From the NCBI GenBank assembly GCA_951406725.2, contig OX597830.1:78864001-78928000 (forward strand): DNA of 64,000 nt, in the 5' to 3' direction. The stretch comes from Octopus vulgaris. Taxonomy: Eukaryota. Positions within the stretch are counted from its first letter, which is position 1. Every line of letters starts with the position of its first letter. Made by a program: the position numbers and the translations under genes. Positions 27,807 through 59,922 of the stretch are shown piece by piece. A model generated the notes under the pieces. It had not been told where the DNA came from and made no database searches. It worked only from the letters and a program-made list of their open reading frames with translations.

Positions 27807-27900
27807 TGCCCCAGGTGAGGATCGAACTCACGACCTTCAGATTCCTCCAACTTTAGGCTTGATTATGAGACTGACGCGCTGCCTACTGCGCTACCGAGGC
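27807..27900 (-). tRNA. tRNA-Met-CAT: Elongator tRNA-Met(CAT) with 21-nt intron, type A (intron 27843-27863)
   Basis: GCCTCGGTAGCGCAGTAGGCAGCGCGTCAGTCTCATA[ATCAAGCCTAAAGTTGGAGGA]ATCTGAAGGTCGTGAGTTCGATCCTCACCTGGGGCA. Removing 21 nt after A37 gives a 73-nt eMet cloverleaf (G1:C72, T31/T39, TTCG T-loop). A long T-tract follows immediately. Confidence 0.94.
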
Positions 27901-28134
27901 TACCGAGTCAGCTGCTATACTTTTTGTGATAATACTTTAGCAAGGGAAGGCTGCGAATGGCGGAAACGTTAGCACGCTGGGCGAAATGCTTAGAAGTATT
28001 TCGTCTGCCGTTACGTTCTGAGTTCAAATTTCGCCGAGGTCGACTTTGCCTTTATCTTTTCGGGATAGATAAATTAAGTACTAGCTGCATACTGAAGTCG
28101 ACCTAATCGATTGGTCCCCTCTCCAAAATTTCGG

Positions 28135-28774
28135 GGATCTTTTCCTTTTGAACGGCAGACAATTTCTAGTTAATTAAACACTTTAAAACTTCGTATACTG
28201 GTAGAATGTGTCAAAATAAAACATTTTTTTTTCTCTTGGCTTTCTTGAGAAAATTGTAATTTGTTTGTTTAACGTAGTTTAATTTTTCGAATTTTAACCA
28301 ATCCTATGCTCTCTTTTGAGCTAAATTTGCTGCGTTTAAAACTGAGACAACATCATACACACGCTTTCCGTATACATACGGAAAGCGTGTGTATAAAATT
28401 ATAAAATTATTTTGTTTGTTAATTGTTTAAATCATTTTCCATTGCTTTCGGTTTTTTTACACGCGTAACAATTAAATTAATTCAACAATTAAGAAAAAAA
28501 AATTAGGGTTAGGGTTAGGTTTAGGGTTAGTTAGAGGATGTTGTCTCAGTTTTAGACGCAGCAAATGATTTTAGTTGAATGGAGGTAATCGATTGGTTAA
28601 AATTGCCGAAATGTTCGGATTTTCAGACGAAATATCTTATAAACTATAGAATTTTCTCAATAAAGCCAAGAAAAAATGATGTTTTATAAACACATTCTAC
28701 CAGTATACGAAATTTAAAAGTGTTTAGTTAACTAGAAATTGTGTTGATATCTGACGTTCAAAAGGAAAAGATCC
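28135..28774. mobile_element. Related 640-bp foldback MITE nested in a SINE
   Basis: TIRs GGATCTTTTCCTTTTGAACG / CGTTCAAAAGGAAAAGATCC, perfect TSD AATTTCGG, long imperfect inverted arms, perfect 19-bp hairpin at 28355-28394, TTAGGG repeats at about 28503-28530. Confidence 0.92.
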
Positions 28775-30117
28775 AATTTCGGGCCTTGTGCATAGAATAA
28801 AAAAGAATAGTTTAGCTACGGGTTAATTATTTATTGATCTGAGTACGTGCGCGCGCTCTGTGTGTACTTCGCTGGCTGACGGATCGTTTCTGTGTGTGCG
28901 TGCGTTGACCTACCCATGTACCTAAATTGAATTGTGACGTAGTAGTACAAACTATTCGACAGTTTGAGAAGCAAAGTCACTATAGTTGTCGTTGCCGTCA
29001 CTGCCGAAGGCTCAACGGAGGATGACGACTAATGACGGAGAAGGACGGAACTGGCGATTAACAACGAAGCTTACCGAAAGAAAATGTCTGAATTTCTTTC
29101 AACTTTCGGCTGATGCAATAGCATTCAATGACTAAAAGGTTATACCAACCTGTACTTCAGCTACCACCATAACCACCACCACCACCACTACTACTACTAC
29201 TACTACTACTACTACTACTACTACTACTACTACTACTATAACTATTACCACTGCCATCTCTGCTACTACTACTAGTTCAACTACAAACATCACCACCAAC
29301 ACCATCACTAATGCTACAATCACCCCTCGAAACTATCGCCACCAATTGGTTTATCGATTAGTCTGTCAAAGCCCTTTCGTCCCAGTCTGTGACATTATCA
29401 ATAACTTACCAATGTGCTTGTTAAGTAAATCTTTCAATGTTCCTCTCATATATTTGTAATAAACCTGAAGTGAAACATAACCAGTGCGCGTGTTTTTATT
29501 GGCGGCATGATCCTCCCCAAAGACATCGAAATCACCCTCAACACATGATTTCACGCCAAGAAGCTTGCAAAACATATGCAAAATACAGAGATTTAATACT
29601 ATTTTTTTCAGTCATATCTGAAATGACTCTGATTAAAGTAGCTTTAATACTTTAGGTCGTTCAAATTTTTCTCAACCGATCGATAGGCCGATTGAGCAAA
29701 CCTGTCAACAATGAACCTATTACGACTACTGGAAAAAAGTGTTAATCAAATTTACTACAATAAAGAAATATTCAATGACCATTAATTATAATTAATGGTG
29801 TTTACATATTCATGTAATTATTCTGTATTGTATATCACTCTATATTTAAAACAAAAATTAAGAAAAGACGGAACTCAACCATTTAGATCGTTCGATGTGA
29901 TACATTAAAACCCGTGAAGAGGGGCCCCCAAAATGGCCGCCGTCCGATACCTAGAATCCGTTAAAGAACAAAAGGAAAAAACGTTCAGTTCATTCGTTTT
30001 CACTTTTCATACAGATAAGAATTTTTGAAAAAATTGCAAACAAGTTACACAAAAATAATTTTCAGAGAAACTTAACTTCAAAGAAAGAAGATTAAAAAAG
30101 AAAAAAATGAAACGAGT

Positions 30118-30190
30118 CATCCCTGGTGGGATTCGAACCCACGACCTCTGGATTAGAAGTCCAGCGAGCTATCCCCTGCGCTACAGAGAC
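30118..30190 (-). tRNA. tRNA-Arg-TCT: tRNA-Arg(TCT) with D-stem mismatch (G24T), possibly impaired
   Basis: GTCTCTG variant. The 3' D-stem reads GCTC instead of GCGC (plus strand ccagcgagct). Confidence 0.8.
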
Positions 30191-57154: not shown

Positions 57155-57361
57155 TGGTACTATTTAAGAAGAGCTAGTCGTGACTAGTCGATCCTTACTT
57201 TGCCTTTTTGCTTTATTTACTTTGTTAAAAAATTTTTTTTATTTTGTATTTTATTTACTTTGCTAGATAGTCTTTGTAGGATCGACTAGTCACGACTAGC
57301 TAGCGCGGATGCGCGAGTACGGGAGTGCGCGCACCGGGACCACTCTTCTTAAATAGTACCA
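57155..57361. mobile_element. Small palindromic MITE-like element present in one unit only
   Basis: Outer IR TGGTACTATTTAAGAAGAG / CTCTTCTTAAATAGTACCA and inner IR GCTAGTCGTGACTAGTCGATCCT / AGGATCGACTAGTCACGACTAGC. Absent at the homologous sites near 35466 and 46283. Confidence 0.75.
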
Positions 57362-58414
57362 GAAAGGTGGGTGAGAAAAACAGAAAGTTCTTTTGTAGGG
57401 AATACATACGTGTGTGTATGCGTGTGTATTTCTTTCCGTCTTATCCAATGTGTCCTCCCGCTTATACAATGTTAGGTGTGACATTGAGTGAGATTTTGGC
57501 TATTATTTCCAGCAAATCGTAGAGAGAGATGGAGAGAGAGAGAGAGAGAGAGAGAGAGAGAGAGGGAACGGAGAGAGTGGAGGTGTGTTGACGATCTGAA
57601 CGACAGCCTATATAAACTTACCATCCTCCTACCACTGCATATTAATTTATTAATATCTACCCTTTTCCTTGTTTCCATTCGAGGTTCTATCAGCTTTACA
57701 TATGAATGTGTGTGTGTGTGTGTGTGTGTGTATGACGGACAACATGAACTGTCGTCAACTGCACAATCCCCACTCCTTAAAGCTTTGTATTCCTTGCACC
57801 CACCTCCCTTTCTTTTTCTCCACAAATACAAGACAGACATACACAATACTGAAATACGCATTAAATAAACACACGCAGACAAATATATTAATAGAACAAG
57901 TTTTTAAAAACATAATAAAAACATACAATCAATGAAGAAATAAAAAAAAAACAGTAAGATGCTTTATGGTATTTTATTAGGTATTCCTGTTTTTTTTTTA
58001 AACCTTCAATGAACAGGTCATGTCACAGACGCTAAACGCAGAAAATTTCTGTCTCGCTATTGGCTAAAAAACTTTTTCCTCCATTTTTTTTTCTCCATAA
58101 CATCATACCTTCATAGCATTTAGACTGGAAAACTACACTGTTATAGCCGATTTTCAGATTATTTACTTCCTCTTAAATAAATGCATATATTTTAAATGAA
58201 AAAACACTAGCCCCTAGGTTTTTTCTTAGTTATTATTTTAGGATTTGTAATTTCGTTCTTCCAGTCACATTTATTTGAATCTAGTCTAAAAAATATAGAA
58301 AGCTGGTGTTAATACAAGTAATATTAAATCTGACATCCTCTTTATCAAATCCAATATGTATCTCTATTTAAAACCTCCTAATTTTTTTTTGTTTTTTACT
58401 GGCCAAGCTGTGTA

Positions 58415-58487
58415 TCACAACCTTCAGATGACTTGATTTCATACTTGATTATAGGACTGACTCTCGGTCTACTGCGCTACCGAGGGC
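58415..58487 (-). pseudogene. Degenerate tRNA-Met pseudogene (unit copy)
   Basis: Same sequence as 36523. Confidence 0.85.
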
Positions 58488-59828
58488 AGAAGATCGCACT
58501 GCTCATATATAATGGTAACAATCTCGGCACAGTATTGCGCGCATGTGTGTGCGCACGTGCGTGTAGATGTTCTGTTAGAACAAACTATACTGCGCTAGAT
58601 GCCATGAGAGAAATTCACATAGTGGCTTTGCATGCAATATACACTGTAGCGATATAAACAAGAGTGCATTTTGCACCAAAAAGCCAATATGAGAGTGTCA
58701 CTCACAATATCTACCGCAGTATAGTTTGTTCTAACAGAACAACCACATTTAAGTGGGGATAAATATCGCTTTCAGATTTTGACTCACGGTCATCATGTCC
58801 GGTGAGGCAGAGAGTAAGACAATTACATAGACCCCAGCGCCCGACTGGTATTTATTTTATCGACCCTGAAAGGATGAAAAGGAAGAGTTAACCCCTGGAT
58901 ATTACTCTTTACTCTTTTACTCTTGTACTTGTTTCAGTCATTTGACTGTGGCCATGCTGGAGCAGCGCTTTTAGTCGAGCAAATCGACCCCAGGACTTAT
59001 TCTTTGTAAGCCTAGTACTTATTCTATCGGTCTCTTTTGCCGAAATGCTAAGTCATGGGGACGTAAACACACCAGCATCGGTTGCCAAGCGATGTTGGGG
59101 GAGGACAAACACAGACACACAAATACACACACACACACACACATAATATATATAATATATATATATATATATATATATATATATATATATATATATATAT
59201 ATACATATATACGACAGGCTTCTTTCAGTTTCCGTCTACCAAATCCACTCACAAGGCTTTGGTCGGCCCGAGGCTATAGTAGAAGACACTTGCTCAAGGT
59301 GCCACGCACTGGGACTGAACCCGGAACCATGTGGTTGGTAGGCAAGCTACTTACCAAACAGCCACTCCTATTAATGCAAATAATTATATCTTCTTACACG
59401 CTACCCACGGGAACAATTGAGGCAATTTCTTTCTTTAACACCATCATCAGAAGTGACGTGGGATCTTTTCGATTTGACCGGCAGATTTTTAAAATAATTT
59501 CTTTGTAACTAAACACTTTTAAACTTCGTATACTGGTAGAATGTGTTACATAAAACATCTTTTTCTCTTGGTTTTCTTGAGAAAATTCTGTAGTTTGTAG
59601 GCTATTTGTTGTTTAATTTATCGTATTTCGGCAATGTTGTTGACCCCAGTGCTCGAATGGTACCTATTTTATCGTCTCCGAAAGGATGAAAAGGAAAACT
59701 CAACCTCGGGTTATTAATACAAATAAATATATCCTCTTATACGGTACCCACGGGAACAATTTGAGGTCAATTCTTCTGACACAATCATCAAAACGATTTG
59801 TGTGTGAGTAATTGAAAAAAAAAAAATG

Positions 59829-59922
59829 TGCCCCAGGTGAGGATCGAACTCACGACCTTCAGATTCCTCTAACTTTATGCTTGATTATGAGACTGACGCG
59901 CTGCCTACTGCGCTACCGAGGC
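59829..59922 (-). tRNA. tRNA-Met-CAT: Elongator tRNA-Met(CAT) with 21-nt intron, type A
   Basis: Intron ATCAAGCATAAAGTTAGAGGA, exons intact, T-tract terminator. Confidence 0.94.

Follow-up and report, generated by a model that had tools for sequence, protein, structure and literature searches.

Do the inserts carried by a cluster of elongator tRNA-Met (eMet) genes of Octopus vulgaris behave as ordinary spliced introns, and if so, were they acquired by the octopus lineage? Introns of metazoan tRNAs are described as essentially confined to the Tyr, Ile, Leu and Arg isotypes (PMC12530127), and Met-CAU introns have been placed in plants and fungi (PMC12168002). This is the contrast from which the first-pass annotation of the locus started, and it holds. 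The window considered here is the whole analyzed stretch of 64,000 nt, in which the following features are found, with ARAGORN (run with introns allowed) or Rfam where these are named.

27807..27900, minus strand: tRNA-eMet(CAT), intron type A at 27843-27863 (ARAGORN, Rfam)
33051..33144, minus strand: tRNA-eMet(CAT), intron type B at 33087-33107, T4 terminator (ARAGORN, Rfam)
37938..38031, minus strand: tRNA-eMet(CAT), intron type A at 37974-37994 (ARAGORN, Rfam)
43838..43931, minus strand: tRNA-eMet(CAT), intron type B at 43874-43894 (ARAGORN)
48749..48842, minus strand: tRNA-eMet(CAT), intron type A at 48785-48805 (ARAGORN, Rfam)
54677..54770, minus strand: tRNA-eMet(CAT), intron type B at 54713-54733, T4 terminator (ARAGORN, Rfam)
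59829..59922, minus strand: tRNA-eMet(CAT), intron type A at 59865-59885 (ARAGORN, Rfam)
27297..27358, minus strand: eighth eMet copy, 3'-truncated, retaining exon 1, the intron and the initial bases of exon 2
30769..64000, minus strand: tandem array in the order Arg-TCT, Met type B, Met type A, Arg-TCT
12039..61506: 13 intronless tRNA-Arg(TCT) genes, among and upstream of the Met genes (ARAGORN, Rfam)

All seven full-length Met-type genes are 94 nt long, with 37 nt of exon 1, the 21-nt insert and 36 nt of exon 2, which confirms the 21-nt insert after A37 of the first-pass annotation. Since G1:C72, T54 and A73 are present in all seven, they are elongator and not initiator genes (initiator tRNA-Met is marked by A1:U72), and in a published alignment they stand close to the eMet sequences of Ciona and vertebrates. 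The first three bases of the insert are also those of exon 2, which allows the register of the intron to slide; the register 37/38 is the canonical one and restores the published eMet anticodon arm. In the copy at 43838, A replaces U41 and the 29-41 pair is lost; ARAGORN miscalls this copy as Leu, and it may be defective. Of the T-tract terminators reported earlier, those of four copies are T9-T12, and those of the other three are no longer than T4 and lie 7 nt downstream. Unlike members of a SINE or pseudogene family, with decayed exons, a body and tail beyond the tRNA part and many scattered copies, the window genes have intact exons followed directly by T-tracts.

The seven genes are not independent: their introns fall into two types (A and B), and six of the genes belong to a tandem unit of 10.8-11.5 kb with repeats 92-98% identical. 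The array continues for about 10 kb beyond the window end (L043). Arg-TCT is indeed intronless, both in the window (13 of 13) and among the pattern matches genome-wide (30 of 30). To call this a reversed vertebrate pattern goes too far: Arg-TCT introns are missing from the description of C. elegans and from the fly list, and outside vertebrates Arg-TCT genes without introns are nothing out of the ordinary.

All 37 intact eMet genes found in the genome-wide pattern search, located on at least nine contigs, carry an intron of 15-22 nt. The count of intron-bearing versus intronless eMet genes suggested in the first-pass annotation is thus 37 to 0 for intact genes, as obtained by pattern searches of the genome. 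Whole-genome searches from both exons, with at most one mismatch allowed, yielded no eMet gene that is both intact and intronless, and the exact spliced junction has no match genome-wide; two of the three short junction matches (L031, L032) are due to chance. Among 40 exon-2 look-alikes with one mismatch that were inspected, L059, L060, L062, L063, L065 and L068-L086 belong to another tRNA-derived SINE and are not eMet. By the motif used, a SINE-like tail follows 16 of the 22 degenerate Met loci versus 2 of the 37 intact ones. Automated catalogues of tRNA genes in octopus assemblies probably include these eMet genes already.

Introns of the octopus eMet genes have a fixed design. In all 29 distinct introns the triplet GAG occupies positions -5 to -3, opposite C32-U33-C34, and the exon-2 triplet occupies positions +1 to +3, while position +4 is variable and the middles of the 21-mer introns are only 50% identical. 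When the metagenome introns described below are added, positions +1 and +2 are invariant in 81 of 81 introns and position +3 is conserved in 76. Bases 32-34 are predicted to pair with GAG at no more than moderate probability (mean 0.40; in the window, type A 0.24 and type B 0.57). These are the features of a canonical TSEN-type intron, whose length was taken as about 15-30 nt: the site is 37/38, the intron is 15-22 nt long and poorly conserved inside, position 32 is a C facing a purine at -3, and the 3' splice site would lie in a bulge. Origin by tandem duplication of exon 2 was considered and rejected, the intron middles aligning with exon 2 no better than shuffles do (p 0.76 for octopus, 0.80 for the metagenome).

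The genome contains two loci with the TSEN catalytic domain (PF01974), one of them named Sen34, and five RtcB exon matches on C6, two of whose alignments contain a stop. A TSEN34 exon identifies the genome as that of Octopus vulgaris. Given canonical introns and no intact intronless eMet gene found, the supply of elongator Met likely depends on TSEN/RTCB splicing, in agreement with the first-pass annotation. In the proposed pathway, Pol III would produce a precursor with a leader, the intron and a U-tail; C32-U33-C34 would pair with the intron GAG at -3 to -5, so that the 3' splice site would sit in a bulge of 3 nt; and TSEN cleavage and RTCB ligation would follow, at least sometimes before the ends are trimmed, given that trailers persist in intronless retrocopies. 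Splicing by TSEN and RTCB of an intron that is old and kept by many invertebrates, rather than recently gained by the octopus, is the reading we consider likely.

Introns of other octopus isotypes follow the same logic, the geometry of anticodon and intron covarying with isotype (Met, Lys-TTT, Tyr, Leu-CAA). Lys-TTT introns, which the first reading of the locus had missed, are present in all 60 clustered genes; G occupies position -3 in 37 of 38, and A occupies position -5, facing U34, again in 37 of 38. Tyr introns (46 of 46 genes) mostly end, judged by eye, in C/T-N-G-N-N; Leu-CAA introns (9 of 11 genes) all end in GAG-NN (9 of 9). For Ile-TAT, the first pattern, built from fly, yielded no match, and later patterns, which required an intron, yielded 15 intron-bearing matches. 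Further intron-bearing isotypes may exist, because the genome-wide RF00005 search scored only 63 candidates and favours intronless genes. Octopus Lys-TTT shares a canonical intron with yeast tRNA-Lys(UUU), from which it differs in being found in an animal.

Degenerate copies without introns provide a separate source of evidence. Two intronless Met copies at unrelated sites (L026, L033) each have a trailer and a SINE-like tail; L026 has eight differences in exon 2, no exact intron-bearing parent of either was found, and both could derive from a lost or unassembled intronless gene. Scattered intronless Lys-TTT copies are more numerous, and in 10 of 18 the trailer is within one of nine bases of that of an intron-bearing copy (shuffles: mean 0.4, maximum 3), though one of the ten, L149, is a microsatellite artefact. 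Position A58 is changed in 9 of the 17 readable scattered intronless copies, versus 2 of 26 scattered intron-bearing ones (p 0.003) and 0 of 57 clustered intron-bearing ones (p 2e-7); such changes are read as misreading of m1A58 by reverse transcriptase. Judging from these sequence features, the scattered intronless Lys-TTT copies are likely fossils of spliced precursors. In trailer, T-tract and SINE-like tail the scattered copies as a whole are similar to tRNA-derived processed retropseudogenes and chimeric retrocopies; what sets them apart is that they record precursors before as well as after splicing, with 3' trailers and an A58 signature.

If instead the inserts were never spliced, the array would be made up of tRNA-derived repeats or pseudogenes, and intronless genes that escaped the searches would supply the mature eMet. 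The genome does contain many tRNA-derived SINEs and tRNA retrocopies, the pattern searches tolerated no more than one mismatch, and 12 of the 95 exon-2 matches were left unopened; but these 12 share a variant whose seven opened members are all a SINE, searches from both exons turned up no intact intronless gene, eMet exons hardly vary in spite of diverging introns and flanks, and precisely intronless retrocopies exist. We regard this explanation as hardly credible. The proposal of a lineage-specific gain made in the first-pass annotation fares little better. It agrees with the literature search, in which no report of eMet or Lys-UUU introns in animals was found, and for Lys-TTT a range narrower than that of the Met intron is possible, as six metagenome loci with intron-bearing Met carry intronless Lys-TTT. 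Against it, the middles of octopus introns have already diverged by 50%, and metagenome contigs contain 57 distinct eMet genes that share the octopus intron design and fall into 15 exon types, next to Arg, Thr and Lys tRNAs that differ from the octopus ones at 9-15 of 73-74 positions (58-64 matching bases). The search pattern could return intron-bearing genes only, but it left the intron start free, and still 47 of the 52 distinct introns (13-36 nt) start as the octopus introns do. A recent gain specific to octopus or to cephalopods is thereby largely refuted and very improbable. Because comparable introns are present in the DNA of numerous other organisms, the eMet intron is likely old and not an octopus invention.

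The metagenome contigs have G+C of 0.32-0.53 and form 24 groups unlinked by their flanks, which, with the 15 exon types, suggests that the introns are widely spread; the hosts are probably invertebrate. Rfam finds only tRNAs at 20 of these loci. In 300 of the 667 open frames, Pfam recognized nothing beyond fragments of RT, an exon of CCDC134 and, on L207, a permease and a terpene synthase; homologue searches matched unnamed proteins; for a 78% relative, the Atlas gives animal CCDC134 clusters, and for L220 it gives nothing. Two divergent fungus-like contigs (L206, L207) have introns with other starts. A single gain within animals, e.g. in a spiralian ancestor, non-homologous to the eMet introns of plants, fungi and archaea and leaving splicing as described, would explain the exon-2 triplet at the start of animal-type introns as a short direct repeat of the kind left by insertion or duplication. 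It is also consistent with the different starts of the fungus-like introns, with the Trichoplax table, where neither Met nor Lys carries an intron mark, and with GtRNAdb, where animals are essentially without a Met intron. On the other hand, intron middles are no closer to exon 2 than shuffles, the diversity of exon types, base composition and flanks suggests a wide spread, and eMet introns are found in plants, fungi and archaea, so that we think such a gain unlikely, if well worth considering. The canonical site and the pairing-constrained GAG are insufficient proof of homology with the plant and fungal introns, and the Trichoplax table fits gain inside a large invertebrate clade as well as it fits loss. 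Returning to the old intron, we find its loss in vertebrates and insects, rather than a gain in octopus, fairly probable.

The conserved intron start may have a function of its own. In plants and archaea the duplex of the D97 guide spans at least 11 bp and takes in intron bases, eMet introns being reported to join the D97-type Cm34 guide duplex (PMC12168002; PMC10576143). In such guides C34 is the fifth base from box D; counted from there, 11 bp stop exactly at intron position +3, where conservation ends. This three-base limit fits 11 bp, and a guide duplex would be the most likely use of the conserved start. The octopus intron start copies exon positions 38-40, and therefore one guide would fit both the precursor and the spliced tRNA. 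Human eMet, which is intronless unlike the octopus one, receives Cm34 from SNORD97/SCARNA97 (SNORD133; PMC6601510), and the target 30-40 is identical in the octopus precursor, the spliced form and the published animal alignment. It is conceivable, at somewhat less than an even chance, that positions +1 to +3 copy the exon so that a SNORD97-type box C/D guide forms an 11-bp duplex (30-40) on the precursor and methylates C34. No octopus SNORD97-type guide was located in the 150 kb around LARP4, and the five metagenome introns with G at +3 count against the duplex.

The start could serve another end, as a mimic of the anticodon loop for t6A37 or pseudouridine enzymes, through tolerance of a sliding register, or by stabilizing the intron once released, since on circularization its junction would reproduce the sequence of the 3' splice site. 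The near-invariance of the start would suit this, and intron-dependent modifications are known for other tRNAs. However, the mature form of Lys-TTT also has U36-A37-A38, yet the starts of its introns vary, and the three-base limit suits the 11-bp duplex; we hold these uses possible but doubtful. A wider scenario built on the guide duplex, offered here as speculation that is rather unlikely in its entirety, is that an ancient archaeal-eukaryotic eMet intron was never lost in large invertebrate lineages, and that in animals the intron's 5' end came to imitate three bases of exon 2 under constraint from a SNORD97-type guide methylating C34 on the unspliced precursor. The guide would then have worked with or without splicing, and vertebrates and insects would have been free to lose the intron; the octopus would add Lys-UUU, so that six tRNA families need TSEN, and the retrocopy fossils would show splicing and m1A58 preceding trimming.

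The splicing mechanism itself is ordinary. Octopus eMet introns share with the metazoan Tyr-GUA, Ile-UAU, Leu-CAA and Arg-UCU introns (PMC10485636, PMC12530127) the position after base 37, the length of 15-22 nt, the C32 x -3 contact and an intact mature body. What differs is the hosts, eMet-CAU and Lys-UUU, which are counted as essentially intronless in Metazoa (PMC12530127), and the invariance of the first three bases in octopus eMet, whereas the 5' sequence requirements of such introns are described as relaxed. With the eMet introns of plants, fungi and archaea (PMC12168002; PMC10576143) they share isotype and position, but the octopus genes have animal-type exons and an intron start that copies 38-40. 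An animal with introns in all intact eMet genes found and in most Lys-UUU genes, and with a Met design that many other organisms share, shows the rule of Tyr, Ile, Leu and Arg to reflect the model species sampled, and decoding of AUG and AAA in such animals would hang on TSEN/RTCB. Retrocopies would offer a genome-only readout of the order in which germ-line cells splice, modify and trim their tRNAs, and the invariant three-base start a sharp test of why tRNA introns stay (a guide duplex on the precursor) and how they are lost.

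The search of the window with ARAGORN (with intron search) and Rfam places seven Met-type genes (27807-59922, minus strand) at the same coordinates as in the first-pass annotation, each consisting of 37 nt, the 21-nt insert described there after A37, and 36 nt. Judged by G1:C72, T54 and the likeness to published animal rows, these are elongator tRNA-Met (eMet) genes. T-tract terminators had been ascribed to all seven; in three copies the tract is only four T long. In the copy at 43838 the 29-41 pair is broken. The tandem unit of 10.8-11.5 kb contains two alternating eMet intron types along with two Arg-TCT genes; identity among its repeats is 92-98%, and the array runs on beyond the window edge. 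Since the two intron types sit in near-identical repeats, the window represents two gene lineages, not seven independent cases. Decayed 5' halves of Met/Arg genes also recur in each unit (36552-36593, 47354-47395, 58444-58485, 31987-32031, 42776-42820, 53617-53661).

In the whole genome (2.8 Gb, 227 contigs), the eMet exon-1 pattern has 48 exact matches, all inspected, and the exon-2 pattern, with at most one mismatch, has 95; the 12 uninspected ones all belong to a variant whose seven inspected members are a different SINE. After merging by place, 63 Met-like loci remain: 37 intact (at most one mismatch in each exon), 22 degenerate with a readable junction, and 4 unreadable. The count of intron-bearing versus intronless genes, proposed as a check by the first-pass annotation, gives an intron in all intact loci found by these pattern searches (37/37), of 15, 20, 21 or 22 nt. 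Only 2/22 degenerate loci are intronless. The exact spliced junction has no match in the genome, and its shorter form has three, two of them by chance. An abundant tRNA-derived SINE has a T-arm region at most one base in 21 off eMet exon 2 (L059, L060, L062, L063, L065, L068-L086).

The introns of intact genes have fixed ends. Each of the 29 distinct introns opens with the triplet that also begins exon 2 and carries GAG at positions -5 to -3 (counted from the intron 3' end), while the middles of the 21-mers are 50% identical. GAG can pair with C32-U33-C34, which places the 3' splice site within a bulge of 3 nt; the mean probability of this pairing in ViennaRNA is 0.40, no more than moderate support for the predicted anticodon-intron pairing. 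The proximal pair of this kind is described as critical for intron excision in a section of PMC10485636. Intron origin by exon 2 duplication found no support in sequence comparison.

Among other isotypes, introns are found in 46/46 Tyr-GTA and 9/11 Leu-CAA matches, in 0/43 Lys-CTT and in 0/30 Arg-TCT matches (the latter called intronless already at first pass), and 15 Ile-TAT matches bear introns, as their pattern itself demanded. At C4:51.91-52.07 M some 40 Tyr-GTA genes form a cluster; their introns vary widely, and a 188-nt tandem repeat of four lies within it. Unexpectedly, among 100 Lys-TTT matches listed of 108, 84 have an intron of 11-25 nt, 15 are intronless and one has a 4-nt remnant. 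Many of these genes are clustered:

Lys-TTT gene clusters (L129-L146; canonical intron of 11-21 nt in 60/60 genes)
C6:97.55-97.61 M, Lys-TTT cluster
C9:94.84-94.95 M, Lys-TTT cluster
C9:118.38-118.43 M, Lys-TTT cluster

The distinct introns of these clusters have G at -3 and A at -5 (37/38 each), mirroring C32 and U34. The Lys-TTT copy L153 (C15:58397010) keeps only the last four intron bases, and ARAGORN reads it as Ile-TAT. As for the splicing genes, a TSEN catalytic exon shows 100% identity, over 48% of the query, to an Octopus vulgaris protein named Sen34 (as against 86% to Argonauta hians and 75% to O. bimaculoides), on which we assign the genome to O. vulgaris, and RtcB exons are present. 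We infer that the eMet introns are handled by the ordinary splicing machinery.

Scattered copies bear on splicing. A trailer, a T-tract and a SINE-like tail are found at 16/22 degenerate Met loci and at 9/18 intronless and 12/27 intron-bearing scattered Lys loci, but at 0/60 clustered Lys genes; scattered tailed copies are likely precursor retrocopies. Precursor-like copies, each joined via the T-tract to the head of one among several SINE-like elements (L002, L003, L008, L010, L029, L037, L038, L041, L047-L064 and others), are possibly chimeric retrocopies that arose through a template switch or through ligation of RNA. In 10/18 intronless Lys copies the trailer differs at no more than 1 of 9 bases from that of a copy with an intron (by chance, mean 0.4, maximum 3 such copies in 2000 shuffles); one match counted here, L149, is a microsatellite artefact. 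Intronless L095 has both leader and trailer in common with L126. Moreover, A58 is changed in 9/17 readable intronless Lys copies (eight to T), compared with 2/26 scattered intron-bearing (p 0.003) and 0/57 clustered ones (p 2e-7). This excess would be expected if m1A58 had been misread by reverse transcriptase. The intronless Lys-TTT copies that share leader and trailer with intron-bearing genes and have A58 changed (among L093-L118, L149-L152) thus likely derive, by retrocopying, from precursors that were spliced and m1A58-modified but not yet trimmed; L093, L102 and L113, for which no parent or tail was found, could be real intronless genes. The intronless Met copies L026 and L033 were inserted independently yet share their trailer and tail; no exact intron-bearing parent was found for them. 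From these copies we infer splicing at the eMet and Lys loci.

The age of the intron was addressed with metagenome contigs, scanned with a pattern made of the intron end and exon 2, with GAG fixed and the intron start free, which intronless genes could not match. From 119 matched stretches 79 loci were analysed. They yield 57 distinct eMet genes in which exon 1 can be read, falling into 15 exon types; their distinct introns number 52 and measure 13-36 nt. The exon-2 triplet starts 47/52 introns, and 5/52, all from one array type, deviate at +3. The hosts are distant from octopus, because the flanks form 24 unlinked groups, G+C ranges from 0.32 to 0.53, and the Arg, Thr and Lys tRNAs nearby agree with those of octopus in 58-64 of 73-74 bases. 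One contig carries a CCDC134 exon, its relative nearest to animal clusters, and eMet exons that are only 0-2 bases from octopus point to animal hosts. In L206 and L207 the exons are divergent and the introns start differently; L207, adjoining permease and terpene synthase genes, is probably fungal. Loci L186, L194, L195, L238 and L241 are dense many-isotype arrays, with a 14-18 nt intron in Gly-GCC, G at +3 in eMet introns, and intronless Lys-TTT; at L183 ARAGORN calls a Leu-AAG with a 25-nt intron adjoining intron-bearing eMet. L188 and L218, and in part L189 and L226, are small clusters that combine Met, Ile-TAT, Gly-CCC and Arg-TCT; the placing of Met next to intronless Arg-TCT resembles the window array.

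The same design in distant hosts makes a recent gain in octopus, the lineage-specific gain suggested at first pass, very unlikely. An old, retained intron is the probable reading of these data; a single gain in a large invertebrate clade seems rather unlikely.

According to PMC12530127, introns in metazoan tRNAs are essentially limited to Tyr, Ile, Leu and Arg. The sections consulted of PMC12168002 place Met-CAU introns in plants and fungi, in line with the first-pass statement that they are best known there. In the parts available, the fly list names only Tyr, Ile and Leu (PMC4536317), the Trichoplax table marks introns on Leu, Ile, Arg and Tyr, not on Met or Lys (PMC2655684), and the portions of PMC4090602, PMC2770079, PMC13578239 and PMC8450103 mention no animal Met introns. 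Our literature search, with GtRNAdb outside its scope, found no report of animal eMet introns; automatic annotations probably list the octopus genes already.

The fixed intron start may be related to a modification guide. According to the relevant part of PMC6601510, SNORD97 and SCARNA97 are the guides for Cm34 in eMet of humans, the target being the fifth base from box D, and insects, tunicates and plants have candidate homologs; a part of PMC10576143 describes D97-type duplexes of at least 11 bp, in which eMet introns of plants and archaea take part. Eleven pairs counted from box D span 30-40, reaching intron +1 to +3 on the unspliced octopus precursor, exactly the invariant stretch, while +4 varies. 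Lys introns have no fixed start of this kind. A SNORD97-type guide was not located in the octopus LARP4 region. A guide duplex on the unspliced precursor would hold +1 to +3 fixed, and we tentatively put forward the Cm34 duplex as the explanation, a hypothesis with somewhat less than even chances.

The octopus eMet intron is thus real, selected and canonical, and sits in an isotype described as intronless in animals; from the comparisons made here, it is very unlikely to be an octopus invention, and Lys-UUU, by its gene sequences, is a second such isotype. For the conserved start of the eMet intron a testable reason is proposed.
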